From a bacterium (lineage in GTDB: Bacteria; BMS3Abin14): a stretch of DNA of 64,000 nucleotides. Position numbers and translations under genes: made by a program. Positions within the stretch are counted from its first letter, which is position 1, and each line of letters opens with the position of its first letter. Below, piece by piece: positions 679 through 63,841 of the stretch. The stretch covers positions 308,999-372,998 of the forward strand of contig CP070719.1 in assembly GCA_020350725.1 (NCBI GenBank), in the 5' to 3' direction. Below the pieces are notes generated by a model. That model saw nothing but the letters and a program-made list of their open reading frames with translations. It had not been told where the DNA came from and did not search any database.

Positions 679-1127
679 CTTCTGTCTCCTTTCCAGATCA
701 CGGCGTCGATTTTCCAGAACAAGCTCCTGGCGATGGATCGGCCTGCCGCCGGAAGCATTCGAACAGATATAATTATATACGATAGGATAATCCTAGAACA
801 TGTCGGACCGTGTCAAGGAATGGATAATAGCTCCGTCGAGCGGTCCGACTCCGACCGGGGATATCCGAAATTACACTTTACTCCTTCTCCCGCGGGGAAC
901 GAAGCCCATCGGATGTCGGAACCCGGCCGCGAATTGCGGCTGCTTCGGGCCGTTGCGGCCGGACCCGCCTTGCGCCCGTTTTCTCCATGCACTATCATTA
1001 GCACTCACGTTACGGCAGGTATCCCGGTTCACGAATTCTGACCTGCCAAAACCCGAAATCACCGTGTCGACACTGGATGACCGGCCGGTTTGACGGCTGC
1101 TGATGACAGGCGGGAGGAGGTATTGCC

Positions 1128-7112: not shown

Positions 7113-7970
7113 ATGATGCGCACTTTAACCCTAGTAGTAATTGGAATACTGCTTACTGTTACACCGGCCTTGAACGGCACCGCAGCTCAGATCCAGCGAG
7201 TCCCGGATCAACAGGCCGCGACCGCCCTGCCCGCCTCCCTCGACTCGTTCTACCCGCCCAGCACCGACCGGCCGGTATATCTGATGGACATGCTGAAACT
7301 CGACACCCTCTTCTCGGGCATCGCGGCCGACGTTATGGAGGGGGACCACCAGGGTGCGAAGAGCACGTTCCGGCAGTTCAGATCCCAATATGTGGACGTC
7401 GGGAAAATGGTCCCGGAATGGAGAGAATACTACCCGATGGAACCGGTGGAAAAACTCGGAGCCGAGGTGTCCAGCGGAGAACCGGGAAGGATCATGGCCG
7501 CCATCAGTGAGGTGGGCAGGCTCTGTCACGAATGCCACTTCGTTTCAATGGTCCCCGTTCAGCAGAAGTACCACTGGGGGACTTTCACCGAGGTGAGAGT
7601 CGACGACCCGCTGAGCCGGGAGGAGGTGGACTTCTCACTGTTCAAGAAGTACCTTTCCACTAACCTGGCGGGAATCAGCATTAACCTTCGACAGGGTCAG
7701 ACGGAAAATGCCCGTCGGCAGTTTGCGGGATTCGAGGCGAGATTCCAGGCACTGAAAGGGTCCTGCCTGAATTGCCATGATCAGGAAAACAGGTACTTCG
7801 TCGATGGTGTGGTGGAGGACCTTTTGGGCAGGCTGGGCAGTGCCCTGGGGGACCAGAAGGTCAACACTGAAGCGGTGGAATCCCTGATCCAGGGTATCGG
7901 AAGGGAGAGCTGTTCCAAATGCCACCTCGTCCACGTGCCCGCTGCCTTAGCCGGAGTCAAGTATCAATGA
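7113..7970 (+). CDS. secreted triheme c-type cytochrome
   Basis: Signal peptide MMRTLTLVVIGILLTVTPALNGTAAQ. Three CXXCH motifs: CHECH, CLNCH, CSKCH. Confidence 0.7.
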   Translation: MMRTLTLVVIGILLTVTPALNGTAAQIQRVPDQQAATALPASLDSFYPPSTDRPVYLMDMLKLDTLFSGIAADVMEGDHQGAKSTFRQFRSQYVDVGKMVPEWREYYPMEPVEKLGAEVSSGEPGRIMAAISEVGRLCHECHFVSMVPVQQKYHWGTFTEVRVDDPLSREEVDFSLFKKYLSTNLAGISINLRQGQTENARRQFAGFEARFQALKGSCLNCHDQENRYFVDGVVEDLLGRLGSALGDQKVNTEAVESLIQGIGRESCSKCHLVHVPAALAGVKYQ

Positions 7971-12902: not shown

Positions 12903-13856
12903 GTGCGCCGGGTGGTGGGGCTTATGGGCGATATATGGGCTGTTCTCCTGATCGCAGGTTTACTGGTCAACCCCCTTGTTTTTTTCGGTTCCATCTTCCT
13001 TGTCGTGTTCCTGAACAGGCGGATCAGGCTCTTTGAACCCGGATACAGGGGAGGGTGGATGGTTGTGCTCCACCTTGTCCTCATCGCCGCTATCGGGCTC
13101 TTCGTCGAGACGGTCGCAAACTCTTTTGCCGGAAGGTCAGTCCGGAACTGGTTCCTGCTTCCCATAAGGGCGGCCCCACTTTTGGTGGTGCCGGGCCTTC
13201 TGTATGTGAAGCTGAGAAGGCGGCGGGCGGCTGTGCCGGCACCGAAAAGGGCATCTGAGGCTGCGGGAGCCGACGTCGTCTGGGAAGCCACTCCAGCCCC
13301 TCCCGCGGCCGCGGCACTCCCGGAGGGGAGATACAGGACGGTGGCGGTCCGGACCGCATGGGCCATCGCCCTGTCCGGTATGGCCATGCCTTGGCTGGTG
13401 GGGCTTGGGGTCAAGGTGTATCTGATGCACATGGGCCATCCCACCTGGCCCATCTCATCCTTCCTGGAGCCGGTCATGATACCGGTCCTCCTGGGTTCCA
13501 CGGCGTCTCTCTGGTCCTCGCCGTTCCTGGTCCTGGCCCTTCTGGCCCGCTACAGGATCCTTGCCGGGGACGTTACCAGGATGGCATTCAGGGACCGCCT
13601 GTGGATCGTCGGATTGACCCATCTGGGCGGCATGGGATCGGCCGTCCTCCTGTTCACCGGCGTGTTCTGGGAGTTCGACATCCTTTACCTGTTCGCACCC
13701 ATGGGCCTGTTCCTCCTGCCTCCCATGCTGCTGGCTTACGGTGCCGGCCTCCTCGCCGTCAAGTTCCGGAGGAGGACCCCTGATCGGTCGAGGGACACCT
13801 CTTTCGACAGACGGACTGCCGCAGCTGAACAACCGGGGTTCAGAGATGAGGAATGA
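12903..13856 (+). CDS. hypothetical polytopic membrane protein
   Basis: About 8 hydrophobic segments with an Ala/Pro-rich loop; no recognisable motif. Confidence 0.5.
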   Translation: MRRVVGLMGDIWAVLLIAGLLVNPLVFFGSIFLVVFLNRRIRLFEPGYRGGWMVVLHLVLIAAIGLFVETVANSFAGRSVRNWFLLPIRAAPLLVVPGLLYVKLRRRRAAVPAPKRASEAAGADVVWEATPAPPAAAALPEGRYRTVAVRTAWAIALSGMAMPWLVGLGVKVYLMHMGHPTWPISSFLEPVMIPVLLGSTASLWSSPFLVLALLARYRILAGDVTRMAFRDRLWIVGLTHLGGMGSAVLLFTGVFWEFDILYLFAPMGLFLLPPMLLAYGAGLLAVKFRRRTPDRSRDTSFDRRTAAAEQPGFRDEE

Positions 13857-13907: not shown

Positions 13908-15197
13908 CTATTGAGCCGGTAGTTGGATGAATGCGGCCGACGGCTTGATGAACTGCTGACGAAGGCTCAGGGTGTAGGCGCCCTGTCCGGGCAGCAGGAG
14001 GACGTCTCCCGGCTCGATGCCGTCACCGAAATAGGACCATCCCCAGACGTCGTGTGGGGTGCACAGGGAGCCGGCGATCAGGCATGGGTGCTCGTCGAGG
14101 GAGGGCCGGCTGAGGTTGATCACCGGCACGTAATCTGTCTCGTATCGTTCCCACCCCACGATATTGGTTCCAGCGTCGGTGACGACGAGGTCGTCGGCCT
14201 TCCTGTCGGCCACCCGGATCATGATGTGCATGGCGTCGTTGACGATCCAACGCCCTGGCTCGGCGTAGACTGCCGGCGATGAGAAGGGAAAGATCCGGTC
14301 GTGGAGGGTTCGGGAGATCTCACGGGCGAAGTCCTCGATGGACGCCGCCTCAAGACATCGGCTCCCCCTTACGCCTGAGCCGCCTCCCGGCGATCGGATC
14401 TCCTCGGTCAGGAGCCACTCGCCGTCCCGGGGCCAGTAGCCGCCACCGATGTCAAGAAATTCAAGGCGGTTGCCATGCACCGGATCCAGGTCCCTCCAGA
14501 CATCCCCCAGCCGGCGGATGAAGCCGGTCTGGGCTTCAGGGGTGAGGTTCCAGCTCGTGTGGAACTGAAGGCCCCTGAGAAGGACGCCGGGACAGCCTGC
14601 CGCCCGGTCAAGGAAGGTCTCGAGATCGGAGAGGGGGATGCCGAATTTGCGCCACAGGCCCTCCTCCTGGGTGGTGAGGCGGACGCCGGAGGTGATCTCG
14701 ACGGCGGCGCGTTGCGCCGCATTCGTGAGACGGTCCAGCTCCCCGAAACTGTCCATGAGAACCGTCACTCGCTCATGGTGGGCAGCGGCCAGATCCAGTT
14801 CCTCCTCTGTCTTACCGGGACCGGAGAAGAGGATCCGACGGCACCCTGTCTCCAGGGCCAGCTTGAGCTCCAGACCGCTTGAGACATCGAGGCCGAGGCC
14901 GGAACGAACCGCTTCGGCCGCCACCTGAGGGTGGTTGTTGCACTTGACGGCGAAGAACGCTTCGAAAGCCGGCAGACGCTGTCTGAAGGCGTCGAGGAAG
15001 GACCGTGCCCTGTCCCTCAGAACAGCAGGCTCGAAGAGGTAGAGGGGTACCGATTCCTGCCGGGCAATCCCCTCGAGTTCAGCCGCCCGGTCAAGGAATT
15101 TCCTTACCAGATCCCTTGCCTTCTTCCGGCAGTCCGCGTCCTCCCGCATGAGACGGGAAAGGTCTGCCGATTGACGCCTGTCGGGAGCGCCGGTCAC
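13908..15197 (-). CDS. fold-III PLP-dependent decarboxylase (ornithine/diaminopimelate/carboxynorspermidine decarboxylase family)
   Basis: FAVKCNNHP lysine motif, GLGLDVSS, EPGRW and CTPHD motifs. GTG start overlaps the upstream stop (GTGA). Confidence 0.75.
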   Translation of the reverse strand: MTGAPDRRQSADLSRLMREDADCRKKARDLVRKFLDRAAELEGIARQESVPLYLFEPAVLRDRARSFLDAFRQRLPAFEAFFAVKCNNHPQVAAEAVRSGLGLDVSSGLELKLALETGCRRILFSGPGKTEEELDLAAAHHERVTVLMDSFGELDRLTNAAQRAAVEITSGVRLTTQEEGLWRKFGIPLSDLETFLDRAAGCPGVLLRGLQFHTSWNLTPEAQTGFIRRLGDVWRDLDPVHGNRLEFLDIGGGYWPRDGEWLLTEEIRSPGGGSGVRGSRCLEAASIEDFAREISRTLHDRIFPFSSPAVYAEPGRWIVNDAMHIMIRVADRKADDLVVTDAGTNIVGWERYETDYVPVINLSRPSLDEHPCLIAGSLCTPHDVWGWSYFGDGIEPGDVLLLPGQGAYTLSLRQQFIKPSAAFIQLPAQ

Positions 15198-16477
15198 GAG
15201 GCGATCTCCACCTCGGCAAGCTCCTCGAGGCAGGCGCCCTCTTCAGACAGCCGGCTTCGGTCTCCCGGCCGGAAGACAACGTGACCCAGAACGCGCGAGA
15301 AATAATCGTCGGGCGGCAGGGCCACCCGGTGCCCGGGTTTTCTGTAAAAAACCACCTCGAGGACCTTCGGGTCCGTCTGGAGCCGGCCGTTGGCGAGATT
15401 CTGGAGGAGACCCTCCCGGCGGGCGAACATGCGGAACGCCGCGAGGAATTCATGGGATTCCAGTTTCGGCAGGAAGATCGTCCGACCCTCGGCCACGTCC
15501 AAAGCCAGGCCCAGAGTGTCGATGCCGCTGCTGGCCTTCACCAGCCAGGGAAGACAATCCCCCGCAGGCCGCGCCGAGACCTCCAGGAAATAGGGGCGTC
15601 CCCGGTGGACGATGAAATCGGCCATGAATATCCCCTGTTCGAATCCCATGGAGCTGGCCGAATTTCGCAGCTGGGCCTCGAGATCTCTCTGGCTGATACC
15701 CGTCTCCTCCATGTCGGCGACGTAATAGAGAAGAGCTGTTCCCGTGCCGATCTCAGGTGCCAGGATCTTGCCGGAAAGACGCACGAGCTGCGCCCGATGG
15801 CCGGAGAGGACAAAGTCGCAGCTGAACTCGGGACCTGTGAAGCCCTCCTCAAGGACGACGTCCTGCCTTGGATCCAGACCCCGGCCCGGGGGGGAAAAGC
15901 TCCGGTACATCCGGTCGTCGGTATGGTTGGCCAGCCTCCTGGTGATGATCCGGAACGCCTTTCTGGCGTCTTCCCGCTTACGGCACCAGAAGACCAGTTC
16001 GCTTCCCGATCCGGTAAGAGGTTTGAGGACCAGGGGGAATCCCAGCTTGTCCATGACCGTCTCGAGGTCATCCCTGTCACGGGCGGTCAGGGATCTCGGG
16101 CAGCACACACCCGAGCGAAGCCATGCCCTCTTGGAGTGGAATTTGCTGCGGCTTGTCCGCACAGCCTCCAGTGAATGAAAGGGGAGCTTCCAACGATCGG
16201 CAAGATCGGAGGCGAGGATCAGGGATTCGTCGTCGTAGCAGGTAAGGCCGCTGAGTTCGATGTCGTAACGGACAAGATGGCCGGAAAGCGCCTCCGCCGA
16301 CCCCCGGGCATCCCGAAGGTCGAAGGTGACCTCCTCTTCAGGACCCGGCGTTTCCTCCGACGCCTCAAGACGCATCCTCTCATCGGTGAGAAAGAGGGCT
16401 CGTCCCGGGTATCTCCGCCGTATGATGTCGACGTAATCGGGAGTCGTGCCGACTACGAGGACCCGTCTTGAGCTCAT
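15194..16477 (-). CDS. ATP-grasp domain ligase
   Basis: FPLVLKPLTGSGSELVF..., EEGFTGPEFSCDF..., FLEVSARPAG: ATP-grasp fold signature order. Confidence 0.6.
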   Translation of the reverse strand: MSSRRVLVVGTTPDYVDIIRRRYPGRALFLTDERMRLEASEETPGPEEEVTFDLRDARGSAEALSGHLVRYDIELSGLTCYDDESLILASDLADRWKLPFHSLEAVRTSRSKFHSKRAWLRSGVCCPRSLTARDRDDLETVMDKLGFPLVLKPLTGSGSELVFWCRKREDARKAFRIITRRLANHTDDRMYRSFSPPGRGLDPRQDVVLEEGFTGPEFSCDFVLSGHRAQLVRLSGKILAPEIGTGTALLYYVADMEETGISQRDLEAQLRNSASSMGFEQGIFMADFIVHRGRPYFLEVSARPAGDCLPWLVKASSGIDTLGLALDVAEGRTIFLPKLESHEFLAAFRMFARREGLLQNLANGRLQTDPKVLEVVFYRKPGHRVALPPDDYFSRVLGHVVFRPGDRSRLSEEGACLEELAEVEIAS

Positions 16478-17811: not shown

Positions 17812-17885
17812 CTTATTTTTCCTCCTTTCTTGCCTTTAGGTGGCCTGTGGCCTTGCCGCTGAGATGGCGTTGGGGCTGGTCACCG

Positions 17886-18542
17886 CTAGGTTTCCTCCTG
17901 ACGGAGGGCTCCGTTGATGAACCGCGCCATGCTGCTCACCAGGACCCCCCTCAGGGACTGCAGATTAGCGTCCACGTCATCGTCCTCCGAGGCGATGACG
18001 GCGAACGAGTAGTAGCCGGAAAGAAAACCCGCCACCGCGCAGCCCATGCGGCGCAGAAGGGGTTTGTCGAGACGCTGTTTGACCACTGCGTCCACCAGTG
18101 CCTCGATGGACTCCAGGTATTCGATGAAGGGCAGCTCCAGGCCGGAATAGCCCTCCTTGAGCTTCAGGTCCGCACGGCCCTGATAGTAGAGGACAAACTC
18201 CTCCCATCGTGTGCTGAAGAAATCGATGTGAACCTGGATGATGGATTCCAGCAGGGACGTCAGGTCGTCAGCCCCGGTGCATCGCTTCTCCATGAGCGAG
18301 GTCAGCTCTTCAAGGACCTGCCGGATCAGGTCGGCGATGATCTCGTTCTTGTCGGAAAAGTGGTAGTAGAAGGTTCCCTTCCCCACGTCCGCCCGCTGGG
18401 TGATCTCGTCGATCGTGGTCAGATCGATCCCCTTCTCGGCGAACAGCTCCCTCGCCGCAATGAGGAGCCGGCGGCGGGTGGCACGGACCCTTCTGGTCTG
18501 GCGGGTGGCCTGTTCCCTGCGGACATTATCCACACCGGTCAT
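17886..18542 (-). CDS. TetR/AcrR-family transcriptional regulator
   Basis: HTH RRRLLIAARELFAEKGIDLTTIDEITQRADVGKGTFYYHF. GGGAGG RBS. Confidence 0.85.
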   Translation of the reverse strand: MTGVDNVRREQATRQTRRVRATRRRLLIAARELFAEKGIDLTTIDEITQRADVGKGTFYYHFSDKNEIIADLIRQVLEELTSLMEKRCTGADDLTSLLESIIQVHIDFFSTRWEEFVLYYQGRADLKLKEGYSGLELPFIEYLESIEALVDAVVKQRLDKPLLRRMGCAVAGFLSGYYSFAVIASEDDDVDANLQSLRGVLVSSMARFINGALRQEET

Positions 18543-18565
18543 GATGATTTTTTCCTCCCATTTTT

Positions 18566-18600
18566 TCGACTAGATAGTCAATTTTGACCATTTAGTCAAC
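18566..18600. promoter_or_regulatory. cluster of overlapping inverted repeats (GACTA-N2-TAGTC, GTCAA-N2-TTGAC, TTGAC-N6-GTCAA): TetR operator candidate
   Basis: cGACTAGATAGTCAATTTTGACCATTTAGTCAAc lies directly upstream of the tetR start at 18542. Confidence 0.55.
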
Positions 18601-29801: not shown

Positions 29802-30080
29802 TATCCCATCAAGCCCAGATCATAGTGCCGCTGAGACAGGATGGCCCCCCTGACCCGGGGGGCCTCCTGTTTTCGGCCATCGGTTCCCGGTCCGGCTGCG
29901 GCCTTCGCGATCCTTGGAATCGGAGCTTTAGCGTTCAGGATCGTTGCCTCCCCGAGTGCGGTTCCAGGTTCCATCCCTCCCCTTCGACAGGGGGCCGGTG
30001 CGGGGGCAGTCCACCCCGCTCTCACCCGTTGTCGCCTTCCCCGGTTCCCTTATTTCCTCTTCGGGGTATAATAGCTGCGT

Positions 30081-30165
30081 GCGAGAATGGCGGAACTGGC
30101 AGACGCGCTGGATTTAGGATCCAGTACCTAGCGGTGTGGGGGTTCGAATCCCCCTTCTCGCACCA
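30081..30165 (+). tRNA. tRNA-Leu (anticodon TAG)
   Basis: Acceptor gcgagaa/ttctcgc, anticodon stem ctgga/tccag with loop ttTAGga, long variable arm, T-loop GGTTCGAATCC, 3' ACCA. Confidence 0.85.
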
Positions 30166-30414
30166 CCCTTCGACAGGTTCAGGGTTGAAAATGAGTCAAC
30201 GATTGGATATCAGGGGGATGAGAACCCTGACCGAAGGTCACCGGTGAGCCTGTCCTGAACGGAGTGAAGGAAATCCCCCTTCTCGCACCACCCTTCGACA
30301 GGCTCAGGGTTGAAAATGGGTCTTCGATTGGATATCAGGGGGATGAGAACCCTGACCGAAGGTCACCGGTGAGCCTGTCCTGAACGGAGTGAAGGAAATC
30401 CCCCTTCTCGCACC
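30166..30414 (+). repeat. two tandem ~125-bp direct repeats, each ending in a copy of the tRNA-Leu 3' end (ATCCCCCTTCTCGCACC)
   Basis: Unit cccttcgacagg(t/c)tcagggttgaaaatg...gaaggaaatcccccttctcgcacc occurs twice (30166-30290, 30291-30414) with only a few substitutions. Confidence 0.8.
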
Positions 30415-30662
30415 GGCAGCGTCCCTGCCGGACTACGGGTGTAAAGTATAATAGGGATAAGGGCAAAGGGGACATCACAGCCCGTTTTCTTGACCATATT
30501 TTCTCTTTCTACTTTCGACGCTAACCTTTTCCCTCTGACATCTCTTGCTCAATGTGTCTTTTTTTTGTAGCATCAGCCACCCACACTGGGAGTTCAGGGT
30601 TCTGGAACCTGAAATCCGGAATTTGTAACGAAGTCCTAACCTTTACAGGGATACCATATTAA

Positions 30663-39968: not shown

Positions 39969-40071
39969 GTCCTGAGTCCATGAAATCCTGTAACTCGGCG
40001 CAACCGCCCGGATGAGGGGGCCCGACCCTCTCGGCGATGGATCCTCTTGCCCGTCTTCTCACTCCCGGCCC

Positions 40072-40890
40072 CTAGTCCTTACTTTTACCAAGCTCCCTCG
40101 AACGCTCCACGGCAGCCCTGACACCTGCCCTGACCGCATCCTCGAAACCCGCTTCGGCCATGGCTTTCAGGCCGGCCTCCGTGGTGCCGCCCGGCGAGGT
40201 CACCATACCGCGCAGCTCCCGGGGAGATATCTCCGTCTCCAGTATCATCTTCCCGGCACCGAGGATGGTCTGTCCGACCAGCTCAGCCGCAGCCTCTTCC
40301 GGGAGGCCGGCCGCAGTTCCCTCCCGAATGAGGACCTCGGCCAATCGGAACACGTAGGCGGGACCGCTGCCGGAAAGGCCGGTGACGGTGTCCAGGAGCG
40401 ATTCGGGGAGGACAAGGCAGGATCCTACGGAGTGAAAGATCTCCACCGCCCAGTGAGTCATTTCAGCGTTGACCCTGCTTCCCGGAACGACGACCGTGGC
40501 GCCGCATCCGATGAGAGCCGGTGTGTTGGGCATCGATCTTATGATGGGGGAGCGGGGAAGGATCTTCTCGAGGAAGGACAGGGTTGTTCCCGCGGCGATG
40601 GAGATGATCAGCTGCCTGGGTGCCGGAATCTTTCGGATCTCCGCGAGGACTTCCGGCAGGACCTGGGGTTTGGTGGCGAGGAAGATCGTTCCGCTGATCT
40701 TGACCGGGACCCGGTTGTCCTCGGTCACCCTGACACCGTAGGTCTTCGCCAGAAAGTCGCGGCGGTCGGCCCTGGGCTCGGAGATAGTGATGTTGAGGCC
40801 ATCGCAGATGCCCGCCCGGATGATCCCCCCGGCGAGGGCCTCGGCCATGTTTCCGCCTCCGATAAATCCGATTGTTTTTCGATAGCTCAT
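40072..40890 (-). CDS. proC: pyrroline-5-carboxylate reductase
   Basis: IGFIGGGNMAEAL Rossmann motif and a ProC C-terminal dimerisation domain. Confidence 0.9.
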   Translation of the reverse strand: MSYRKTIGFIGGGNMAEALAGGIIRAGICDGLNITISEPRADRRDFLAKTYGVRVTEDNRVPVKISGTIFLATKPQVLPEVLAEIRKIPAPRQLIISIAAGTTLSFLEKILPRSPIIRSMPNTPALIGCGATVVVPGSRVNAEMTHWAVEIFHSVGSCLVLPESLLDTVTGLSGSGPAYVFRLAEVLIREGTAAGLPEEAAAELVGQTILGAGKMILETEISPRELRGMVTSPGGTTEAGLKAMAEAGFEDAVRAGVRAAVERSRELGKSKD

Positions 40891-41055
40891 TGAGCACCGC
40901 CCTTTCCTCGCCGATCCCGGTCAGTTGAATATTACCTTTCACTGGAAAAGCTGTCCATCCCCGTGACGGAAGGTATGCAACTTATGGATGTTTGACATTT
41001 ATCGTTGGTAATTTTATATTTAGAGCCGATTCTTAAGGTAAAATCGGAGGTCTGT

Positions 41056-42375: not shown

Positions 42376-43364
42376 GCCCCGGTCCCCTAAGAATCGCCGC
42401 CTTCCTGTTTCTCCTCCTGGCAATTTTCAATCCGACCGCGGCCGATCACCTCCTCGATCGGGCGGAATGGGAGGTCCTGGCCGATTTTCCCCTGGAGGTC
42501 AGGTTTCGGCACGAGCACAGGACGCTGGCCGAGGACATTCTTGGCCGGTCCAGGGTGTTCCTCGACAGGGTTTCCAACTTTCTGGGGATCCCTGTAGGGG
42601 GTCCCTACACTATCCTCATTGCCGGCAGCAGGGATGAGTTCGTGGAACTTCAGCCGGAGGCGTCCTCCGTCCCCGAGTGGGCCGGCGCTCTCACATATCC
42701 GCAGTTCGGAGTCGTCATCCTCATGACTCCAGGCGCCATGGATATTGACCCTCAGGATTTCTGGTCCCTGCTCGAGCATGAAATGGTTCACCTGGTTATG
42801 GGAGAGCAGGAGAACATCCGTCAGGCCCGGTTTCCGCGCTGGCTCAGCGAGGGGATCGCGACATATGCCTCCGGGGAGATGAGGCTGTCCCGTCTGCTTC
42901 ACCTTTCCTGGGCTCAAGTGACAAGCAGAACCATACCCTTTCGGGATCTCCTCACGGATTTCCCAAAGGATCCCGGCGAGGCCGAGGTGGCCTACGCTCA
43001 GAGCTATCTCTTCGTCCAGTATCTCGTCCGCAAATACGGTGAGGGAGCTGTTGCCACGCTGGTGGAATCGGTTCTCGAGCAGGGGGACATGGCACGGGCC
43101 GTGAATAGGTCTTTTGATGTTTCCATGGGCGAACTTCTGGACGGTTTCGACCAGTACGCCCGGGTGAAGGCGACCTGGATACCTGTGATCACCAGCTCCG
43201 CGGTCCTGTGGGGCGCTATCACCCTCCTCTTCCTCTACACTTACGCCTGGAAGAAGATGGTGGGCTATCGACGAATGAGGTACTGGGATGAGGAGGAGTC
43301 TCAGAGCAATGCCCTTTCCAACGGACAACTTAAAGAAGGTGAGGAACCGCCGACCGTTCACTAG
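42369..43364 (+). CDS. membrane-anchored HExxH zinc metallopeptidase-like protein
   Basis: N-terminal signal/TM, HEMVHL motif, C-terminal TM helix (VITSSAVLWGAITLLFLYTYAW). TTG start overlapping the upstream stop. Confidence 0.5.
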   Translation: MLGPGPLRIAAFLFLLLAIFNPTAADHLLDRAEWEVLADFPLEVRFRHEHRTLAEDILGRSRVFLDRVSNFLGIPVGGPYTILIAGSRDEFVELQPEASSVPEWAGALTYPQFGVVILMTPGAMDIDPQDFWSLLEHEMVHLVMGEQENIRQARFPRWLSEGIATYASGEMRLSRLLHLSWAQVTSRTIPFRDLLTDFPKDPGEAEVAYAQSYLFVQYLVRKYGEGAVATLVESVLEQGDMARAVNRSFDVSMGELLDGFDQYARVKATWIPVITSSAVLWGAITLLFLYTYAWKKMVGYRRMRYWDEEESQSNALSNGQLKEGEEPPTVH

Positions 43365-44616
43365 GCTCGTCGCTCTGATCCTGGCTCCGCTGCTTGTCGT
43401 TGGCCCCACGGGGCCTTCCCTGGCGGAGACTTCGTTCCGGAAGGTGGCTGTCCTCGACCCACCTCCAAACCTTCCCCCCGCGCAGGTGGCCCTCTGGCAG
43501 ACGGCAATTGCCAAGGTCCGTTCGAATCCCAGGATCCTGTTGAAGGACGAGGAAACCGTTAGGGCGATCCTCGTTGAGTGGGTCGATAAAACGGCGGCGA
43601 AGGAGGCAGAGCTTCTCTCCGAGGCCATGTCCCTCCGGGGGGCTGTGCGTCTGCAGATAGACAGGGCATGGGATCATTATTATCGTTTCGATTTTCCTGC
43701 ATCCAGGCAGGCTCTCGCCGCTGCAGAGCCAGTGCTGGACGATCTCCCTTCCACGGACATCCAGGCCGGTCTCCTGTTCGAGATCCTTCTCCTTGACGGC
43801 ATGGTCCTGAGGGCCATGAGGGACCCGGACTACCGGCAGAGCTTTCAGAGAGCGGCGTCCCTGAAGCCCGGGGCCGTTCTCGAACCGGAGAGGTATTCCC
43901 CCGACGTCATCGGGGACTTCCAGGAGGCGAAGAGAACAGTTCAAGACGGGCCGAAGGCCACCGTCTCCGTGACCGTCCCGTCCCTGGGGGGGACGGTCCT
44001 GATCGACGGCCGCCGGGCGGGGGACGTGCCCCTCTCAGGGTTTGAGACCTTTCCGGGGGTTCACTTTGTGGAGGTGGTCCATGAGGGGTTCCGGTCCCCG
44101 GCCACGAGGATCGAGCTGGCGGACTGGCAGTCGGTGAACCTGTCCTTCGATCTGACCCCTAAGGGGCCCACGGATCCGCCCCAGGCTTTCTTTGCCCAGA
44201 GAGTCTGGGCAGGAGACAGCCGGTTCTTCCGGGAGCTGGCCCGCAGACTGAACGTTGATCTCGTGGTTCTGGGAAGCTGGGACGGCAGGGACATGAGGGT
44301 GTGGCTGATCGACGGGGAGGGAATGGTCAACACTGAGGGGATGCTCTGGTCCGGGGATTCGGATAAGGGCCGGGAAGACCTCCTCTCGGACATGCTTCGC
44401 CAACCGGAGGACGAATGGGCAAGGGACGAACCGGTCATGGGGATATCGGTCAACGTACCCGAAGCGCCGGAGCAGGAAGTGGAAACGGAGGATGACCGCC
44501 TGGAGGGCCGACGCAGGAAGTGGTACCTGATCCTCGGCGGCGCTCTGCTCCTCGCCGTGGCGGCAGGGGCGATGAAGGATGAGGGAGGGGGCACGAGGGT
44601 GGAGGTGACCTGGTGA
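43309..44616 (+). CDS. secreted hypothetical protein with C-terminal TM anchor
   Basis: Signal peptide, beta-rich middle (possible PEGA-like), C-terminal WYLILGGALLLAVAAGA helix. Start is uncertain (43288 or 43309). Confidence 0.45.
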   Translation: MPFPTDNLKKVRNRRPFTRLVALILAPLLVVGPTGPSLAETSFRKVAVLDPPPNLPPAQVALWQTAIAKVRSNPRILLKDEETVRAILVEWVDKTAAKEAELLSEAMSLRGAVRLQIDRAWDHYYRFDFPASRQALAAAEPVLDDLPSTDIQAGLLFEILLLDGMVLRAMRDPDYRQSFQRAASLKPGAVLEPERYSPDVIGDFQEAKRTVQDGPKATVSVTVPSLGGTVLIDGRRAGDVPLSGFETFPGVHFVEVVHEGFRSPATRIELADWQSVNLSFDLTPKGPTDPPQAFFAQRVWAGDSRFFRELARRLNVDLVVLGSWDGRDMRVWLIDGEGMVNTEGMLWSGDSDKGREDLLSDMLRQPEDEWARDEPVMGISVNVPEAPEQEVETEDDRLEGRRRKWYLILGGALLLAVAAGAMKDEGGGTRVEVTW

Positions 44617-46743: not shown

Positions 46744-47045
46744 CCGGTAATTGAAAGCGGCTCCGACTAAATGTATCAGGTTTCTGTCTGCGCAGACTTC
46801 TCGTATAAGCGGTGGGCAGTGCTGACCCTTTAGCCTCTCTGTATAGTCCTACAGGGGCATCCTTGTCAAGGAAACTTGTGAAACTGGTAACATTCCCGGC
46901 CCTGTCAGCTGAGCACCGGCGATCGGGTGCTGTAAGTGAGGACCTGTCCGGGACGAGACCGGCGGGGGGAAATCGAGAAAAGCTGTACACCAGGGCTTTG
47001 TGCCCGGGGCCGGCCACGGCCATGGTGGCAGCCGGGGGTGCGGTC

Positions 47046-49292
47046 TCATATCACCCTCAGGTTGGCGTACTTCGCGATGAGTTTCTTCTTTCCACCCTTG
47101 GGAAAATAGACGGTGATCCTGGCGTCGCCTCCCTCTCCCTCGACTCCCATGACCTGGCCGACGCCGAACATGGGGTGGCTGACCTCTGTTCCGGGCAGGA
47201 GAGTTTCCTCTCCCTCTACCGGTTCCGGCTCGTAGTGGAACTCGCTTATGGCGATGGTTCCTTCGGAGGGTATACGGGAAGGCCCTCCGCGGCCGGTCAG
47301 GCCGAGGATGGGGAAGGCCGATTCGCTGTGAAGTTCGACATTTTCATCGGGGAGTTCAGAGAAGAACCTCGAGGGATGCGTGTGATCGTACTGACCGAAG
47401 ATCCTCCTCCGCCTGGCGAGGGTCAGAAAGAGCCGCTCCCTGGACCGTGTCATGCCGACATAACAGAGGCGTCTTTCCTCCTCGAGCTCCGCCGGCTCTC
47501 CCTGGGACCGGTAGTGGGGCAGGAGGTCCTCCTCCATCCCCGCCAGGAATACCACCGGGAACTCCAGGCCCTTGGCCATGTGCAGTGTCATGAGTGTCAC
47601 GGCCGAACCCTTGTCCTCCCAGGAGTCGATATCGGACACCAGGGAGACCTGATCCAGGAAGGCCGACAGGGTGTCCGATCCCGATTCCTCGACGCCGGTG
47701 GAGATCTCGAGGAAATCGTGGACGACGGTGAGGAATTCCTGGAGGTTTTCGATCCTGTTCCTGGCCGCTTCCGTGTCCTCTGATTGCAGGGCGGGCAGGT
47801 AGCCGGTATCGTCCATGACACTGACAACGAGTTCATCGAGGGCCTGAACCTGGACCTTGTCGCGGAGACCTCCCATGGTCTCGAGGAAGGCGCTCAGGGC
47901 TGACGCGGCTTTCTTCGTGATCTTAACGCTCTTCAACGCCTCGAGAACCGCCTTTTCGGGCGGGGCATCCTTTGCCGCACAGGACCTGATCTTCTCGAGT
48001 GTCACCTTCCCGATGCCGCGGGCAGGGGCGTTGATAACCCTCTCGAAGCTCGTCCAGTCCGCCGGATTGAGGATCAGCCGGAGGTATGCCAAGGTGTCCC
48101 TGATCTCCATGCGGTCGTAAAAACGGACACCGCCGACAATGGCGTGAGGGATATTGTTCCTCCTCATGGAGTCCTCGATGGCCCTGGACTGGGCGTTGAT
48201 CCTGTAGAAGACCGCGAAATCCCCTGCCGCAAATCCCTCCCTCCGCATCAGGTCGAGGATAGTGGCGGAGATAAAATCGGCCTCGTCACGCTCGTCGACG
48301 GCGGCAAAGGCCGAGACCTTCAGGCCGTCGGGGCGCACCGCCCTCAGTTCCTTGTCCTTTCTTCCCAGGTTCCTGGATATCAGGCAGGAGGCCGCCTTCA
48401 GGATGTGGCCTGTGGATCGATAGTTTTCCATGAGGGAAACGACCTTGGCCTCCGGGAAGTCACTTTCAAAGGAGAGGATGTTGGTGATGTCCGCCCCTCT
48501 CCAGCGATAGATGCTCTGGTCGTCGTCCCCCACCACGCAGATGTTCCTCCTCCTGGCCGACAGGTGCCGGATGATCTGGTACTGGGCGTGATTGGTGTCC
48601 TGGTACTCGTCGACCATTATGAACTGCAGAATGTCCTCGAGATTATCCCTGATGTCCGGATGCCCCTCGAAGAGGCGAAAGGTGAAAAAGAGCAGATCAT
48701 CGAAATCAAGAGCCTGTGAGGCCCTGAGCCGTTCCTCGTAATGACCGTAGGCCAGGACCACCTTCTCCATCAGGTGGTCTCTGCGGACCTCCCCCAGGTC
48801 GGCCATCCCCTCGGGTTCCACGAGGGCATTCTTGGCCCGGCTGATGAGGTAGGAGACGCGCCGGGCTGGTAGAACCCTCTCGTCGACGTTCATCTCCTTG
48901 AGAATGCCCTTTATGATCCTGAGGGAGTCACTGTCATCCGCTATCGTGAAATGGCGGCTGATCCCCATCCGGTCCGCGTGCTGGCGCAGGATGCGCACGC
49001 ATGCCGAGTGAAAGGTGGAGATCCACACCATCCTGCCCTCCCTGCCCGCGAGAGATATAACCCTTTCCCTCATCTCCCCGGCGGCCTTGTTTGTGAACGT
49101 CACCGCCATAATGGCGTAGGGCGGGATATTTCTCTCCTGCAGGAGGTATGCGATCCGGTAGGTGATCACCCGGGTCTTGCCGCTGCCGGCCCCCGCCAGA
49201 ATGAGGAGAGGCCCGTCGACGGTGGTGACGGCGTCTCTCTGGCTGGGGTTGAGATCCTGAAGAGGGAAGAGGGGATTAGGTGGTCGTTTCAT
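47046..49292 (-). CDS. uvrD: ATP-dependent DNA helicase UvrD/PcrA family
   Basis: Walker A AGAGSGKT, helicase motifs (TFHSAC, DEYQDTN, VGDDDQSIYRWRGA). C-terminal extra domain. Confidence 0.9.
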   Translation of the reverse strand: MKRPPNPLFPLQDLNPSQRDAVTTVDGPLLILAGAGSGKTRVITYRIAYLLQERNIPPYAIMAVTFTNKAAGEMRERVISLAGREGRMVWISTFHSACVRILRQHADRMGISRHFTIADDSDSLRIIKGILKEMNVDERVLPARRVSYLISRAKNALVEPEGMADLGEVRRDHLMEKVVLAYGHYEERLRASQALDFDDLLFFTFRLFEGHPDIRDNLEDILQFIMVDEYQDTNHAQYQIIRHLSARRRNICVVGDDDQSIYRWRGADITNILSFESDFPEAKVVSLMENYRSTGHILKAASCLISRNLGRKDKELRAVRPDGLKVSAFAAVDERDEADFISATILDLMRREGFAAGDFAVFYRINAQSRAIEDSMRRNNIPHAIVGGVRFYDRMEIRDTLAYLRLILNPADWTSFERVINAPARGIGKVTLEKIRSCAAKDAPPEKAVLEALKSVKITKKAASALSAFLETMGGLRDKVQVQALDELVVSVMDDTGYLPALQSEDTEAARNRIENLQEFLTVVHDFLEISTGVEESGSDTLSAFLDQVSLVSDIDSWEDKGSAVTLMTLHMAKGLEFPVVFLAGMEEDLLPHYRSQGEPAELEEERRLCYVGMTRSRERLFLTLARRRRIFGQYDHTHPSRFFSELPDENVELHSESAFPILGLTGRGGPSRIPSEGTIAISEFHYEPEPVEGEETLLPGTEVSHPMFGVGQVMGVEGEGGDARITVYFPKGGKKKLIAKYANLRVI

Positions 49293-54462: not shown

Positions 54463-54816
54463 CCGTGATTAGTGATTCGTAATTTGTGATTCGTTTTTCC
54501 CCGCGTCCCCGCGTCTGATGTCCAGGTCCCACGTCTTATTTTCCAGGTATTGACTGTGAACCCTTCGACGGGCTCAGGGCAGGCTGTGAACTGGGAACCA
54601 TCTCCTTCGCCCCCTCGCATTTCCGTGTCTCCGCGCCCTCTCTGGACCCTGACCTCTGGACTCTGGACTCATTTCTTCCCCCCTCCCTATCATGCGGTAT
54701 CTTTGCCGGGATCATTTGTGTAAGATGTCCCGGGGTATCCGAGGAAGATCCACGACCGGCACAATCCGTCGCACAGAAGGGGAAACGTTATGGCGGGACA
54801 AGGGAGGGCCAACCAT

Positions 54817-58338: not shown

Positions 58339-59655
58339 GTGATCAAGTCGTGCTATGTTAGTCACATCTGCCCACGTTGCGGCGGAGAAGTGGTCTTTGA
58401 CCAGGAGGCCACGGCTACCAAGTGCCTCTATTGCGGCGCGGGTTTGATGGTGCTGGGAGGGCGCTCCTCCTGGCTGAATTTCCTCATTAAGCCCAAGATC
58501 GAGGTAAAAGATACCGTCGGAGCCATCACCACCATTGCCCAGAAAAACGGATGGAGACCACCCCTTGTCCGCTCCGTCATCCCCTTTTTCTATCCCTTTT
58601 ACCGGACCAGGGGACATGCCATAAAATGGACGAGAGGAGAGAAGAAAGCCCAGAGTGACCCGGTTGGCGAGATCGTCGAAGATGTGGTGACACGGAGTTA
58701 CGATATCATGAGATCGGCCCATGAGGACCTGTCCTGCGGGCTGTTCTCGCCGGGTTTCAGGGTGCAGACCCTCCACCTCTACCTCGCTACCAGGGAAAAC
58801 GCGGGCAAATGGCCCTTCCTCGAAAATCAGACTGACAGGAACACCTTTCTCGACAAGACAAGAGGGAACTCAGTCGATGGACTCGAATCACCCGGAGTGC
58901 AGGTGCGGGAGGAGATGGCCTTCCAGATCCGGGAGCGTCACTCCGTGGTCTATTTCCCCTTTTCCCTCGTGGAGATCCGCGAAGGAAACCAGATCAGGCA
59001 ACTCCTCATCGATGCCGTCGGCGGAGCGCTCGTCCGGCAGTTAGGCCACGAGGAGATGGAACTGCTGCTGGACAACATGGGCCAGAGTGGCGCCAAGTCG
59101 CCCGGAGAGGGCCGCCTGAAACTGATCCCTCTCATCTGTCCTGAGTGCGCCGGCGATCTCGATCCGAGCACCACCGCGGTTGTCCGATTCTGCAGGAGCT
59201 GCGGCAGGGCCTGGGAGGCCGGAGGAGCGCGCATGAGGGAACGGGAGTGTCTCTGGGCAGGCACTGAAGTGATCGTTCGTGGGGAGGGAACAATCTTCCT
59301 GCCTTTCTGGAGGAGGAGCGATGCGGAGAGGACCTTTTTGATACCGGCATTCGGTGTCCGTTCTCCCCAAAACCTGTATAATATCAGTCAGCGCTACTGC
59401 GAGGCCCGTTATCCCGCGGATCCCGTACCCTACGACAGCAGACTCCGCATCGAGGCCCTGAATGCCCAGATCCAGGCCGACGAGGCAGATGAGATGATCG
59501 AGATACTATCCTTAACAACAGACATAAAGCCCTTAAACAGACGTGCAGGTGGCCAGAATCTGGTCCTCATCCCGTTTCGGCGGCGGGGACCGGACCTGGT
59601 GGACCACTACCACGGCTTGGCCGTTCCTATCGGAACCCTGGAGGTCAGGCTATGA
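58339..59655 (+). CDS. hypothetical protein with N-terminal and internal zinc-ribbon motifs
   Basis: CPRCGG-x15-CLYCG at the N-terminus; CPECAG-x15-CRSCG internally. Confidence 0.5.
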   Translation: MIKSCYVSHICPRCGGEVVFDQEATATKCLYCGAGLMVLGGRSSWLNFLIKPKIEVKDTVGAITTIAQKNGWRPPLVRSVIPFFYPFYRTRGHAIKWTRGEKKAQSDPVGEIVEDVVTRSYDIMRSAHEDLSCGLFSPGFRVQTLHLYLATRENAGKWPFLENQTDRNTFLDKTRGNSVDGLESPGVQVREEMAFQIRERHSVVYFPFSLVEIREGNQIRQLLIDAVGGALVRQLGHEEMELLLDNMGQSGAKSPGEGRLKLIPLICPECAGDLDPSTTAVVRFCRSCGRAWEAGGARMRERECLWAGTEVIVRGEGTIFLPFWRRSDAERTFLIPAFGVRSPQNLYNISQRYCEARYPADPVPYDSRLRIEALNAQIQADEADEMIEILSLTTDIKPLNRRAGGQNLVLIPFRRRGPDLVDHYHGLAVPIGTLEVRL

Positions 59656-62121: not shown

Positions 62122-62865
62122 TTGGAAAGAATGGAATTACCATCACAGGTTGTTGCCCGCTTCCGCTATGTTTTCATCGCGGCTGTCCTCATTCTCCTCG
62201 TCCTCTCCCTTGCCAGCCTGGCAGCGGGTATCGTCAAGGGCGTATCGCTGATCCTGAGCCCGGCCGACCTGAAGCCGGGGTCAGGATCCCTGTTCCTGTC
62301 CTACTTCATACGCGCCGCCTTTCTCTACTTCCTTGCAGTGGCCTTCTCCACGCTCTTTCTTGGCGATCTTCCCGTCCCCCAATGGATGGTGGTCAGGAAT
62401 CTTTTCCATTTCAAGATCAAGGTCCTGACCTTTGTGGCAGTGATCATTGCCCTGAATTTTCTGCGCATCCTGGCCGATGGGGACAGGACATCCGCCGATC
62501 TGCTCCAGGCCGGAGGCGGTATATTCCTGGTGCTCGCCGGCATTTTTCTGGTCACCCGCATGGGGGGGCCGTCGGGTGATGAGATGCTTGCCAGGGAAGG
62601 CAACCGGCCTCACGGGACGCCGACCGGCGAGAGAAGGAGAAACAGCGAAAGGCGGAAGGCCGATCGGAGAAAGTCCGAGGACGGGGTCTGGCCGGAAGAG
62701 GCGAGAGACGGATTGAAATTCGAGAGGAAAACCATCCCCAATGGTGGGGATGTGGAGGAAAGCGGCAGACGCGAAGAAAGAGTCAACGGAAACGTGACAG
62801 TCAGACCGGGACCGAGGAGGCCGCCGCGACGGAGGTCGAGAAGCCGTAAGGAAGGTGGTCGGTGA
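62122..62865 (+). CDS. hypothetical membrane protein with Arg-rich C-terminal tail
   Basis: 4-5 TM helices, then a basic tail (RRRNSERRKADRRKSE...RRPPRRRSRSRKEGGR). Confidence 0.45.
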   Translation: MERMELPSQVVARFRYVFIAAVLILLVLSLASLAAGIVKGVSLILSPADLKPGSGSLFLSYFIRAAFLYFLAVAFSTLFLGDLPVPQWMVVRNLFHFKIKVLTFVAVIIALNFLRILADGDRTSADLLQAGGGIFLVLAGIFLVTRMGGPSGDEMLAREGNRPHGTPTGERRRNSERRKADRRKSEDGVWPEEARDGLKFERKTIPNGGDVEESGRREERVNGNVTVRPGPRRPPRRRSRSRKEGGR

Positions 62866-62950: not shown

Positions 62951-63014
62951 TTGGAATTTACATGTTGGATTCAATTGGGGCCGCCGCACCTTCATAGAAA
63001 GGAAGAGAGAACGA

Positions 63015-63800
63015 ATGCAGATACTCAGAATCCACCCCAAGTACTATTCCGACGAGAGGTTGAACAGCGAGCACGACTTCCTTCACCAGCTGTTTGAGAG
63101 TCTCAGCGGGGAAGAGGGAGCTCTGACCGAGCATGCGGACTATTTCCGCTACAACGGAAGACGGGGCCTTCTTTATGAACGGCACAGGATCCTTGTGGAG
63201 GAGATGATCACCAGGGGCCTGTCCCATACCACTCTCATCGACCGCCGTAAGATCGAACCGGAGGAATGGAAGCCGTTGGAGACAACAGAAGATGAAGTCC
63301 TCGCCCATCGTGACCTGGTCAAGGAAGAGGGGGACGCCGGCAGGAAAGAGCTTCCCGATGACGACAACGTGATAGAACTCTCCGGGGAGGAAGAACTGCG
63401 CTCCGTACTGGTGGGGGTGACCGAGCAGGATGTCCTGTTCGGATTGTGGAAGCGATACAGGCACCTGGTCATGGAGCGTTCCTACGGCCGTTATCGAAAT
63501 CTGGCCGATCCCATCCAGGGCAAGGGGCGAGGGCAGGTGTGGATGCTTTTCGACCTGATGATCGAGGAGGCCTTCGCGTCGGACCCTGAAGACGGGGCCC
63601 CGAGGACAGCCTACGAGACGATCTGGGAGGAGGTGGAGGAAGGGGCGACAGCCGAGGAGAAGGAGGACTTCAACAGGCTTCTCGATGGCCTGGAGCCGGC
63701 AAAGGTCAGCCTTGCGATGCGCGGATTCCTTGCCGGCGTGGTCTCCCGGTGCCGTCACGAGGAGCTGCTCAAGTCCCAACTGTTCAAGGATTATCTCTAA
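63015..63800 (+). CDS. pyrimidine-dimer DNA glycosylase-like protein (Pyr_excise/T4 endonuclease V family) with acidic C-terminal extension
   Basis: N-terminus MQILRIHPKYYSDERL...L.....GALTEHADYFRY...LYERHRILVEEMITRG resembles the MRLWSLHPKYLD...GYKNHP...RF...Y...E...RG pattern of this family. Assignment is from memory only. Confidence 0.4.
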   Translation: MQILRIHPKYYSDERLNSEHDFLHQLFESLSGEEGALTEHADYFRYNGRRGLLYERHRILVEEMITRGLSHTTLIDRRKIEPEEWKPLETTEDEVLAHRDLVKEEGDAGRKELPDDDNVIELSGEEELRSVLVGVTEQDVLFGLWKRYRHLVMERSYGRYRNLADPIQGKGRGQVWMLFDLMIEEAFASDPEDGAPRTAYETIWEEVEEGATAEEKEDFNRLLDGLEPAKVSLAMRGFLAGVVSRCRHEELLKSQLFKDYL

Positions 63801-63841
63801 CCGGTGTGTGGAGTCTAGGATCAAGGCTCTGGAAGCCGGAC

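Follow-up and report, generated by a model that had tools for sequence, protein, structure and literature searches.

Does a duplicated tRNA 3' end betray the passage of an integrating element, or can it belong to a repeat that comes and goes with its tRNA gene? The question is raised by the tRNA-Leu(TAG) gene at positions 30081-30165 (+ strand) of a 64-kb stretch of bacterial DNA (contig CP070719.1 of assembly GCA_020350725.1, positions 308,999 to 372,998; referred to as the window, all positions being counted from its first nucleotide), which is followed directly by two near-identical tandem units of 125 nt, each re-creating the 3' end of the tRNA. A first-pass annotation of the window had taken this arrangement for the footprint of a very small element that entered and left the gene through a tRNA-targeting integrase, and had proposed as an alternative that the units encode small RNAs mimicking a tRNA 3' end. 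The integration reading is not supported by the present analysis, and we do not regard the units as the scars of a mobile element. Our preferred reading, to which we assign a probability of roughly 60%, is that they constitute a short, diverged and minimal member of the RtT type of tRNA-linked repeat of Escherichia coli.

Anatomy of the two units

The tRNA was called concordantly by ARAGORN and Rfam, its CCA being encoded, and the repeat by Tandem Repeats Finder (30147-30414, period 125, 2.1 copies, 97% matches, 0 indels), which bears out the layout described by the first-pass annotation. Three copies of an 18-mer, AATCCCCCTTCTCGCACC, lie 125 nt apart, starting at 30147 (within the tRNA), 30272 and 30397; the 18-mer comprises the end of the T-loop, the 3' strand of the T-stem, the 3' strand of the acceptor stem, the discriminator base and CC. 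The original thus spans 30147-30164 and the two tail copies 30272-30289 and 30397-30414, all on the + strand, with 107 nt of non-tail DNA between tails. Unit 1 (30166-30290, + strand) begins at the base directly 3' of the tRNA CCA and ends in AATCCCCCTTCTCGCACCA; unit 2 (30291-30415, + strand) ends in GCACC and a final G. The units are 96% identical to each other, the five differing positions being 30178 (T/C), 30194 (A/G), 30198-30199 (AA/TT) and 30290 (A/G), owing to the last of which unit 1 has a complete CCA at its end and unit 2 has CC and then G.

Each unit can be divided into a left box, a core and a right box that leads into the tail, all on the + strand. The left box, CCCTTCGACAGGYTCAGGG, lies at 30166-30184 and again at 30291-30309. 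The core, AGGGGGAT-GA-GAACCC followed by TGACCGAAGGT, occupies 30212-30238 and 30337-30363, and the right box with its pre-tail block, TGAGCCTGTC-CTGAACGGAGT-GAAGG-A, occupies 30245-30271 and 30370-30396. Left box (30166-30184) and right box (30245-30270) are complementary and form a 15-bp interrupted inverted repeat, and every internal tail has a right box on one side and a left box, inverted relative to it, on the other. The tandem repeat is not an artefact of one assembly. Four independent short-read assemblies encoding an identical trigger factor (Tig) all break within unit 2, and one does so immediately past the final base at which the two units differ; this is the behaviour expected of de Bruijn assemblers at a true tandem repeat and indicates that the repeat is real in the population.

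Apart from the tails, which copy the tRNA in sense from the T-loop AAU to the CCA, the units bear an imprint of their tRNA in antisense. The repeat finder lists the core AGGGGGATGAGAACCC as 88% complementary to the tRNA T-arm; in each unit, about 47 nt past the CCA, the core is the reverse complement of the T-arm of its own tRNA-Leu at 14 of 16 positions (p ~0.012), the only mismatches being a TC>GA substitution at the centre of the loop (AUUCGAA>AUGAGAA), across from tRNA positions 58 and 57. The first 8 nt of the core, AGGGGGAU, are complementary to AUCCCCCU of the tail over 8 bp, reaching one base past the T-stem on each side. Modelled duplexes of the core with the real T-arm have an energy of -14.0 kcal/mol, compared with -19.7 for the unmutated form. 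It is tempting to speculate that TC>GA yields a GAGA tetraloop with a closing U-A pair, which would stabilise a local hairpin and prevent a perfect 16-bp duplex with real T-arms. In sense orientation no similarity of the unit to tRNA-Leu was found apart from the tail, and for this reason the notion that the unit is a decayed sense copy of the tRNA was discarded; an apparent extension of the tail (CGGAGTGAAGG/CGGTGTGGGGG) was not significant. The Rfam search returned no ribozyme or other family at threshold, and a literature search with the box sequences found no match. Three further ideas, namely a CsrA-type GGA sponge, a retroviral-type primer-binding site and a hammerhead-like core, find no specific support in the sequence.

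Comparison with the RtT repeats of E. coli

The best non-tRNA match of both known carriers of the element, the window (unit 2, 19.6 bits) and a relative designated L012 (20.7 bits), is the Rfam family RtT (RF00391). In E. coli K-12, the tyrT locus contains four RtT units of 178 nt, each closing in a tRNA-Tyr tail, and the annotated RttR RNA extends from 7 nt past the CCA of tyrV to the CCA of the first tail. The core of rttR is the reverse complement of the 3' region of tRNA-Tyr at 19 of 22 positions (p<0.0002), with TC>GA at the identical two loop positions, and cross-controls in which each unit was set against the tRNA of the other were negative. The most conserved RtT block, GGAUGAGAA, which corresponds to the antisense T-arm with the loop AUGAGAA, is present in both window units, twice in L012, and in tyrT and serX. 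Further blocks keep the order that they have in the E. coli repeats: first the core GGATGAGAA.C..GACC.AAGGT (p ~0.007, shuffles), next CC.GAA.GG.G, and lastly GA..AATCC followed by the tail, with the right box and pre-tail block aligning in order with CCCGAAGGGCGA...GAGTAATCC of the E. coli RtT-type units.

The window element thus resembles the RtT/RttR repeats of tyrT-tyrV in consisting of same-strand tandem units placed directly behind a tRNA gene and closed, each of them, by the cognate tail with CCA; in the antisense T-arm with the loop AUGAGAA (GUGAGAA in one copy) some 50-60 nt past the CCA; in the 8-10-bp helix that the antisense strand can form with the tail; in the order of GACC.AAGGT, CC.GAA.GG.G and GA..AATCC; and in its variable copy number. 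It differs from them in following a Leu rather than a Tyr tRNA, in the length of its units (125 vs 178 nt), in missing the central hairpins (~40-70 nt), in adding the 15-bp inverted repeat of left and right boxes, in its Rfam score (19.6-20.7 vs 133-137 bits) and in a host that is far from the Enterobacterales.

A scan of 40 + 40 tRNA loci for extra copies of each tRNA's own tail and, in the trailer, of its T-arm in antisense (the first set consisting of 40 non-redundant loci from relatives and distant trigger-factor loci, with 13 further E. coli K-12 loci added later) found tail copies outside tRNA genes only at the window tRNA-Leu, tyrT/tyrV, serX and the arg cluster, and the antisense T-arm only at the window tRNA-Leu (+47), tyrT (+58), tyrV (+61) and serX (+59); of this antisense copy, the arg units retain the 8-nt strand of the helix alone. 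The identical TC>GA change at the two loop positions is common to tyrT, serX and the window element. In the same scan, no module was found at the remaining K-12 tRNAs for Leu, Ser and Tyr. A restriction of the module to class II tRNAs (Tyr, Ser, Leu) was considered and refuted by the tRNA-Arg units described below, most class II tRNAs of K-12 being moreover devoid of it.

The serX array of K-12 (L109; NC_000913.3 1097022-1097564, minus strand) lies behind tRNA-Ser(GGA) and consists of three tandem 181-nt units closing in a tRNA-Ser tail, with the module GGGGGGAT-GA-GAAGCCCCGA at +59. It has no feature in the RefSeq table, and Rfam calls two of its three units RtT, at 46.3 bits. The window units share with those of serX the antisense own T-arm with the identical TC>GA, the closing cognate tail and a T-stem of the G5/C5 type; they differ from them in having no initial terminator, and the serX units retain the central hairpins. 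In the argV-argY-argZ-argQ cluster (L110; NC_000913.3 2817651-2818472, minus strand), units of ~134 nt closing in a tRNA-Arg tail occupy the 198-nt spacers of the cluster and the argQ trailer. They share the 3' half of RtT and keep the helix GGGAGGAT/ATCCTCCC without the GAGAA loop. With scores of 22.8, 31.0 and 43.4 bits, compared with 46.3 for serX and 133-137 for tyrT units, they fall under the RF00391 gathering score and are accordingly missed by standard annotation. The arg units are like those of the window in their cognate tail, their closing helix and a sub-threshold score despite a clear relationship; unlike the window units, they have neither the GAGAA loop nor GACC.AAGGT and are interspersed with complete tRNA genes instead of forming a pure tandem array. 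Their existence establishes that short, diverged units of the RtT type do occur.

When the Tyr, Ser, Arg and Leu units are compared, 62 of 64 cells of the closing helix between antisense strand and tail are paired, and at three positions both strands have changed. The covariation score of this helix (0.339, vs 0.211 in shuffles) was reached by only 1 of 500 shuffles. RtT repeats are found in 4,726 of 5,426 complete E. coli genomes, at 1-9 places per genome, the number of copies within the species ranging from 0 to 9. A published comparison of strains infers losses of RtT in some E. coli strains (PMC3318445), and RtT RNAs have been detected by RNA-seq in Klebsiella (PMC4147364). The range of copy numbers and the inferred losses indicate that arrays of this kind expand, contract and vanish without any integrase.

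Several observations weigh against the assignment of the window units to the RtT type. Their scores of 19.6-20.7 bits are far under the gathering score of RF00391 (45). The central hairpins of the RtT model (..AGCG..; CGUUGC-loop-GCAACG; a UUCG/CGAA stem) are absent from them, 43 model positions being replaced by 6 nt in the Rfam alignment and the hairpins being missing from a MAFFT alignment as well. Most of the shared GGAUGAGAAC amounts to the universal T-loop region in antisense, and much of the sequence similarity to RtT comes from that region together with the tail; convergent design could account for it in place of common descent. The covariation of the closing helix is partly forced, both strands tracking the cognate T-arm. 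The units fold no better than shuffled sequence (z -0.55 and -0.78), and the energy model favours the left-box:right-box stem (-39.8 kcal/mol) over the core:tail closing helix (-32.3 kcal/mol). Every serX unit opens with a strong intrinsic terminator, AAGAGCTCGTACGAAAGTACGGGCTTTTTTTT, so that the downstream serX units may rarely be transcribed, a hint that the array is maintained at the DNA level. Finally, the known carriers of the short version are only two, the window and L012.

The universal antisense T-loop leaves the identical two-base change and the ordered blocks unexplained, and the window units, which fall outside RF00391 by the Rfam threshold, nonetheless share its architectural features. 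The box stem and the core:tail helix interleave and are mutually exclusive; they are alternatives or form a pseudoknot. The T/C difference in the left box of the two units gives G-U vs G-C on the + strand RNA, and altogether two box differences, one between the units and one in L012, replace G-C or A-U pairs by G-U on that strand. These two events are weak evidence that the boxes may pair in the + strand transcript.

Could the units be coding instead? An E. coli RtT unit holds the annotated protamine-like open reading frame (ORF) tpr, and an 18-codon ORF (MSQRLDIRGMRTLTEGHR in unit 1, MGLRLDIRGMRTLTEGHR in unit 2) runs through the core of the window units in frame with it (..RGRMRSFDQG..). The start codon and the upstream part of this ORF are not conserved in L012, where a stop stands in frame just upstream; of the five positions at which the units differ, three are non-synonymous and fall in codons 2-3; the ribosome-binding spacing is improper; and a search of 5.8 billion proteins with six-frame peptides was without a match. 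On these grounds the coding potential of the units was rejected, and we consider it hardly credible that they encode a small basic peptide.

Two other small RNAs invite comparison. The other weak Rfam match was to sX4 of Xanthomonas (RF02223; 18.3 bits vs a gathering score of 70). The sX4 consensus, with its last few bases padded, is read by ARAGORN as a tRNA-Ser(CGA), GGGGGGUGAGA follows ~52 nt later, and Rfam pairs the G-run of GGGGGGUGAGA with the T-stem 3' strand of this tRNA. Read from the Rfam consensus, sX4 has a core of the window type, equally far from its tRNA, and may be a further relative. We note that the sX4 model seems to hold a whole tRNA-Ser(CGA) and a trailer of ~50 nt ending in GGGGGGUGAGA, which would explain the sX4 'hits' reported among the tRNA genes of unrelated bacteria (PMC11124144, PMC6337395). 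The sX4 transcript was confirmed by Northern blotting at 280-300 nt vs the 156 nt expected (PMC3300014). 3'ETS-leuZ of E. coli, annotated beside leuZ, is a functional small RNA cut from a tRNA trailer by the tRNA-processing machinery, as may be the case for the counterpart in the window; unlike the window units, it has no copy of the tRNA tail, no antisense T-arm and no tandem repeats.

Copy number, conservation and the mobile-element question

The lineage from which the window derives is uncultured. Its nearest named trigger factors (~55% identity) belong to metagenome-assembled genomes labelled Deltaproteobacteria, and the GTDB species-level set contains a single genome whose trigger factor is more than 35% identical to that of the window. 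The orthologous spacer between tRNA-Leu and tig was compared across the reachable members of the clade, with Tig as the measure of divergence. Relative to the two units of the window, the closest relatives, L098/L099 (Tig ~74-76%), have none, their CCA being followed by GCCTTCGCTC-hairpin-GAGCTACGGCTGGCAGGCC. L012 (Tig 62% over the whole alignment, 64% by BLAST) has one unit of 157 nt, then a flank of the L098/L099 type and then a second core (17/18 match, p<0.0005). L102, the sister of L012, has no unit, nor do L006-L008 (Tig ~65-67%) or L010, L096 and L097 (Tig ~53-56%). Whether filled or empty, the sites of the relatives switch exactly at the CCA, and a recognisable version of the conserved flank lies 3' of unit 2 in the window, which places the units precisely between the CCA and an older flank. 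In the trigger-factor tree the two carriers fall on opposite sides of the basal split of the clade, with empty sites beside each, implying that the element is old and was repeatedly and cleanly lost, or that it was gained more than once. No degenerate unit or relic of an antisense T-arm stood out from background in the empty sites of L098/L099.

Between the window and L012, three blocks of the unit are preserved: CCCTTCGAC(A/G)GGCTCAGGGTTGAA (24 nt, one change), ATCAGGGGGATGAGAACCCTGACCGAAGGTCA (32 nt, 100% identical) and AGCCTGTCCTGAACGGAGTGAAGGAAATCCCCCTTCTCGCACCA (44 nt, 100% identical). The linkers between them have diverged and are of unequal lengths, and the rest of the tRNA-Leu-tig spacer cannot be aligned at this divergence. 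That the blocks are kept where neutral intergenic DNA is unalignable argues for constraint, and the diverged linkers argue against recent transfer; together, the aligned sequences point to the shared blocks as old, constrained sequence rather than a recent insertion.

These comparisons bear on the possibility that the units are a functionless by-product, a tandem duplication of the 3' part of the tRNA and its trailer that arose by slippage or unequal crossing-over, was homogenised by recombination and disappeared again from many lineages, all without selection. Such an origin would sit well with the near-identity of the units, the absence of the array from most relatives, the insignificant folding z-scores, the terminators carried along in the serX units, as blind duplication of DNA would do, and the second core in the flank of L012, which is expected if the trailer itself was duplicated. 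It does not account for the 32 and 23 non-tail nt that are identical at a Tig identity of 62% while the linkers have diverged, for the recurrence of the antisense T-arm with the same two-base change behind Tyr and Ser tRNAs in E. coli and Leu in the window, or for the dissimilarity of the non-tail part of the unit to the ancestral flank of the closest relative. We regard this explanation as unlikely, while giving it real weight.

The footprint favoured by the first-pass annotation would take the form of a miniature integrative element, comparable to a cis-mobilisable element, served in trans by a tyrosine integrase and inserted repeatedly into the T-loop/3' end of tRNA-Leu. The T-loop is a known crossover location of tRNA-targeting integrases, and the repeated tail begins within it. 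The inserted DNA sits exactly at the CCA, and even sister lineages (L098/L099 vs the window; L102 vs L012) show clean empty sites; inverted right and left boxes surround each internal tail; the carriers are not sister lineages; and a 35-nt identical block occurs away from any tRNA in an unrelated metagenome contig (L013). As in the attL/attR duplications and tandem accretions seen at tRNA genes, the window has direct repeats of a tRNA 3' end that start in the T-loop, and filled and empty sites that are precise. Unlike them, its units come with neither cargo nor an integrase in the 64-kb window, are absent from the collections of mobile elements and have blocks conserved over deep divergence. 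A Pfam scan of the ~40 long ORFs of the window found no integrase, recombinase or transposase, about ten to a dozen of these ORFs having no Pfam match at E<=1e-6. The genes on either side of the array, nuoF-like and Fe-S protein genes upstream and tig-clpP-clpX-lon downstream, are of the housekeeping kind. The 107 nt between tails are too few for cargo or arm sites. The unit had no blastn match in plasmid or phage collections, and exact-pattern scans with the core found nothing among viral contigs or across 185,579 species genomes. The diverged linkers speak against recent spread, and the design is one shared with the RtT arrays of E. coli, which to our knowledge are not mobile. Precise loss, for its part, is explained by recombination between tails. 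Clean loss through the tails, deep conservation of blocks and the RtT design hence cover the same facts without a mobile element, which in our judgement makes an integrative origin distinctly improbable. A comparison of empty sites with repeat numbers, which the first-pass annotation had put forward as a check on its proposal, did reveal relatives with 0, 1 or 2 units; this variation is, though, expected to the same degree from recombination between tails.

The Pfam-less ORFs lie at 7113-7970, 12903-13856, 15194-16477, 17847-18587, 40012-40893, 43288-44616, 46812-47783, 58339-59655, 62122-62865 and 62958-63824, and some of them may be wrong-strand shadows of real genes.

The boxes raise the further possibility that the repeat is a chance composite of dispersed REP-like boxes, possibly with terminator or insulator functions, that came to lie beside a tRNA and owes its likeness to the tail to microhomology. 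The related box which the first-pass annotation had placed at 54568 is genuine, matching the left box with one mismatch (0.03 chance matches expected), and is located at 54561-54579. It is part of an intergenic stretch, ACCCTTCGACGGGCTCAGGG at 54560-54579, that copies the left box at 19 of 20 positions if the preceding A is included (p<0.0005). An exact 12-mer of the left box, CCCTTCGACAGG, is found in addition at 29980-29991 (p ~0.009), 186 nt upstream of unit 1 and before the tRNA promoter. Neither of these extra left boxes is followed by the rest of the unit, so that the left box behaves like an independent short dispersed repeat. The core and the right box have no further copy in the window or in 608 kb of related loci. 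Outside these, the sole match of the 3' block among metagenome contigs was in L013 (Ga0187770_10429173, 805-925, minus strand), where 35 nt are identical to the right box plus AAATCCCCCT; this stretch is intergenic, lies away from any tRNA and is without the acceptor part of the tail. A composite origin would draw on the recurrence of the left box at 54561 and, in part, at 29980, on that of the right box with AAATCCCCCT in L013 among boxes of a widespread kind, and on the pairing of left and right boxes as a 15-bp inverted repeat. Against it stand the failure of the core and right box to recur in the window and related loci, a tail identity that spans the whole acceptor strand and CCA, and an antisense T-arm specific to the adjacent tRNA. 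Within the window the left box alone recurs, to which the one copy of the right box in an unrelated metagenome contig may be added. We hold a chance composite to be very improbable.

In L013, two boxes of the type GTTGTCATTCCGAACGGAGTGAGGAATCCC adjoin the 35-nt stretch. They resemble a class of intergenic boxes that we take to be widespread in many phyla, and also the pre-tail block GAGCGAAGCGAGTCAATCC of the E. coli serX units. Should RtT-type units prove to be an old and widespread module, a reading taken up below, the intergenic boxes of the 'GAACGGAGTGAAGGAATCC' type in L013 could be degenerate relatives of it.

Transcription, processing and significance

If the window units are a minimal member of the RtT type, as we prefer to think, how might they be expressed and maintained? 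The operon upstream, made up of a nuoF-like gene and an Fe-S protein gene, is closed by a terminator-like hairpin of the intrinsic type (GGCCCCCC..GGGGGGCC followed by a T-run; 29843-29864, + strand), which sets the tRNA and the units apart as a separate transcription unit. A -10-like hexamer, TATAAT, lies at 30067-30072 (+ strand), 8 nt 5' of the tRNA, with a weak -35. A consensus promoter scan made no call at this hexamer; it stands at equal spacing before tRNA-Leu in the relatives L098/L099, L096 and L097, from which we infer a putative promoter directly upstream of tRNA-Leu. No terminator lies between the tRNA and the units, a finding that suggests their co-transcription.

We propose that the units would be co-transcribed with tRNA-Leu from this putative promoter. 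The 8-bp helix of core and tail would present the 3' strand of the acceptor stem and ACCA as a single-stranded, tRNA-like end, and the enzymes that trim tRNA 3' ends might cut and trim at each CCA. RNAs of ~125 nt with a tRNA-like 3' end could be released in this way, as annotated for RttR in E. coli, their last 10 nt consisting of free acceptor strand and CCA. The array itself would grow, shrink and vanish cleanly by unequal recombination or slippage between the tail repeats of 18-21 bp, a process that would explain the 0, 1 or 2 units of the relatives. By analogy, and speculatively, the RNA may serve as a mimic or decoy of an uncharged tRNA 3' end and influence the metabolism of tRNA ends or the stringent response. 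A role of rtT RNA in modulating the stringent response is an old proposal, cited as such in a recent preprint (bioRxiv 10.1101/2024.07.17.603846). The secondary idea of the first-pass annotation, that the units encode small RNAs mimicking a tRNA 3' end, thereby comes close to the best-supported reading, the closest known system, RtT/RttR, being precisely such an RNA, and is better than its integrase idea; the transcript of the window is a predicted one.

The surroundings of the units offer some further observations. Directly 3' of the last tail, a hairpin (CCGGCAG-CGTCC-CTGCCGG, then ACTACGG; 30413-30438, + strand) is a homologue of the post-CCA flank of the relatives. A trailer hairpin followed by (C)TACGG after the last CCA is present in three lineages (window 30413-30438; L098 1058-1090 and L099 630-662; L012 188-220), with stems that differ while retaining their pairing (GCTCCC/GGGAGC in L098, GCTCAT/ATGAGC in L012, CCGGCAG/CTGCCGG in the window) and with no T-run. 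The differences are compensatory changes, and the hairpin could be a processing or termination signal of the tRNA transcript. The 9-mer GTATAATAG, which holds the presumed -10 of the tRNA promoter (30066-30075), recurs at 30446-30455, ~30 nt past unit 2, and could there serve as the -10 of a tig promoter or represent a fragment duplicated from the promoter of the tRNA. Downstream, the gene order is tig, clpP, clpX, lon, then tRNA-Val and tRNA-Asp. The tRNA-Leu-tig spacers are rich in lineage-specific simple repeats (GGAGAATAGAAAATAGAGAATAG..., GTACTAGGTACTAAGTAC..., TGGACTCTGGACTTTGGA...), located ~60-200 nt upstream of tig in L014/L098/L099 and downstream of the tRNA in L006/L012/L102. A block just upstream of these repeats, TTTTCCGGTAGCATC, is kept in L098/L099, L012, L006, L102 and L094, the window retaining only GTAGCATC.

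For annotation, the lesson of the locus is that a duplicated tRNA 3' end is not always the mark of an integrated element. A practical outcome is a search rule, an antisense copy of the own T-arm ~45-65 nt past the CCA combined with a tail copy, that finds members missed by the Rfam model; it recovered the serX array of E. coli K-12, without a feature in the RefSeq table, and the count of tail copies picked out the arg units. According to the same preprint, RtT repeats have been present in E. coli sequence since the late 1970s, and one of them yields a stable small RNA (bioRxiv 10.1101/2024.07.17.603846).

A 125-nt version from a distant lineage would show which parts are kept, namely the tail, two short blocks and an antisense T-arm that bears the two-base change in its loop, and that the helix of antisense strand and tail is re-tuned to each tRNA. 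No new mechanism is revealed by it; rather, the long-standing puzzle of RtT is narrowed to a small conserved core. Tentatively, and knowing that the odds favour a narrower history, one may go further and view RtT-type units not as a peculiarity of enterobacteria but as an old, widely distributed tRNA-linked module whose minimal core survives in the 125-nt version. Were this true, the minimal core would consist of an antisense T-arm with an R-U-GAGA-A loop (possibly of the GNRA type), GACC.AAGGU, CC.GAA.GG.G and the cognate tail, the antisense strand and the tail would re-tune to the host tRNA (Tyr, Ser, Arg or Leu), and the module would have a conserved role in the handling of tRNA 3' ends, for example as a decoy for readers of the uncharged CCA or as a device that steers the folding of the precursor.

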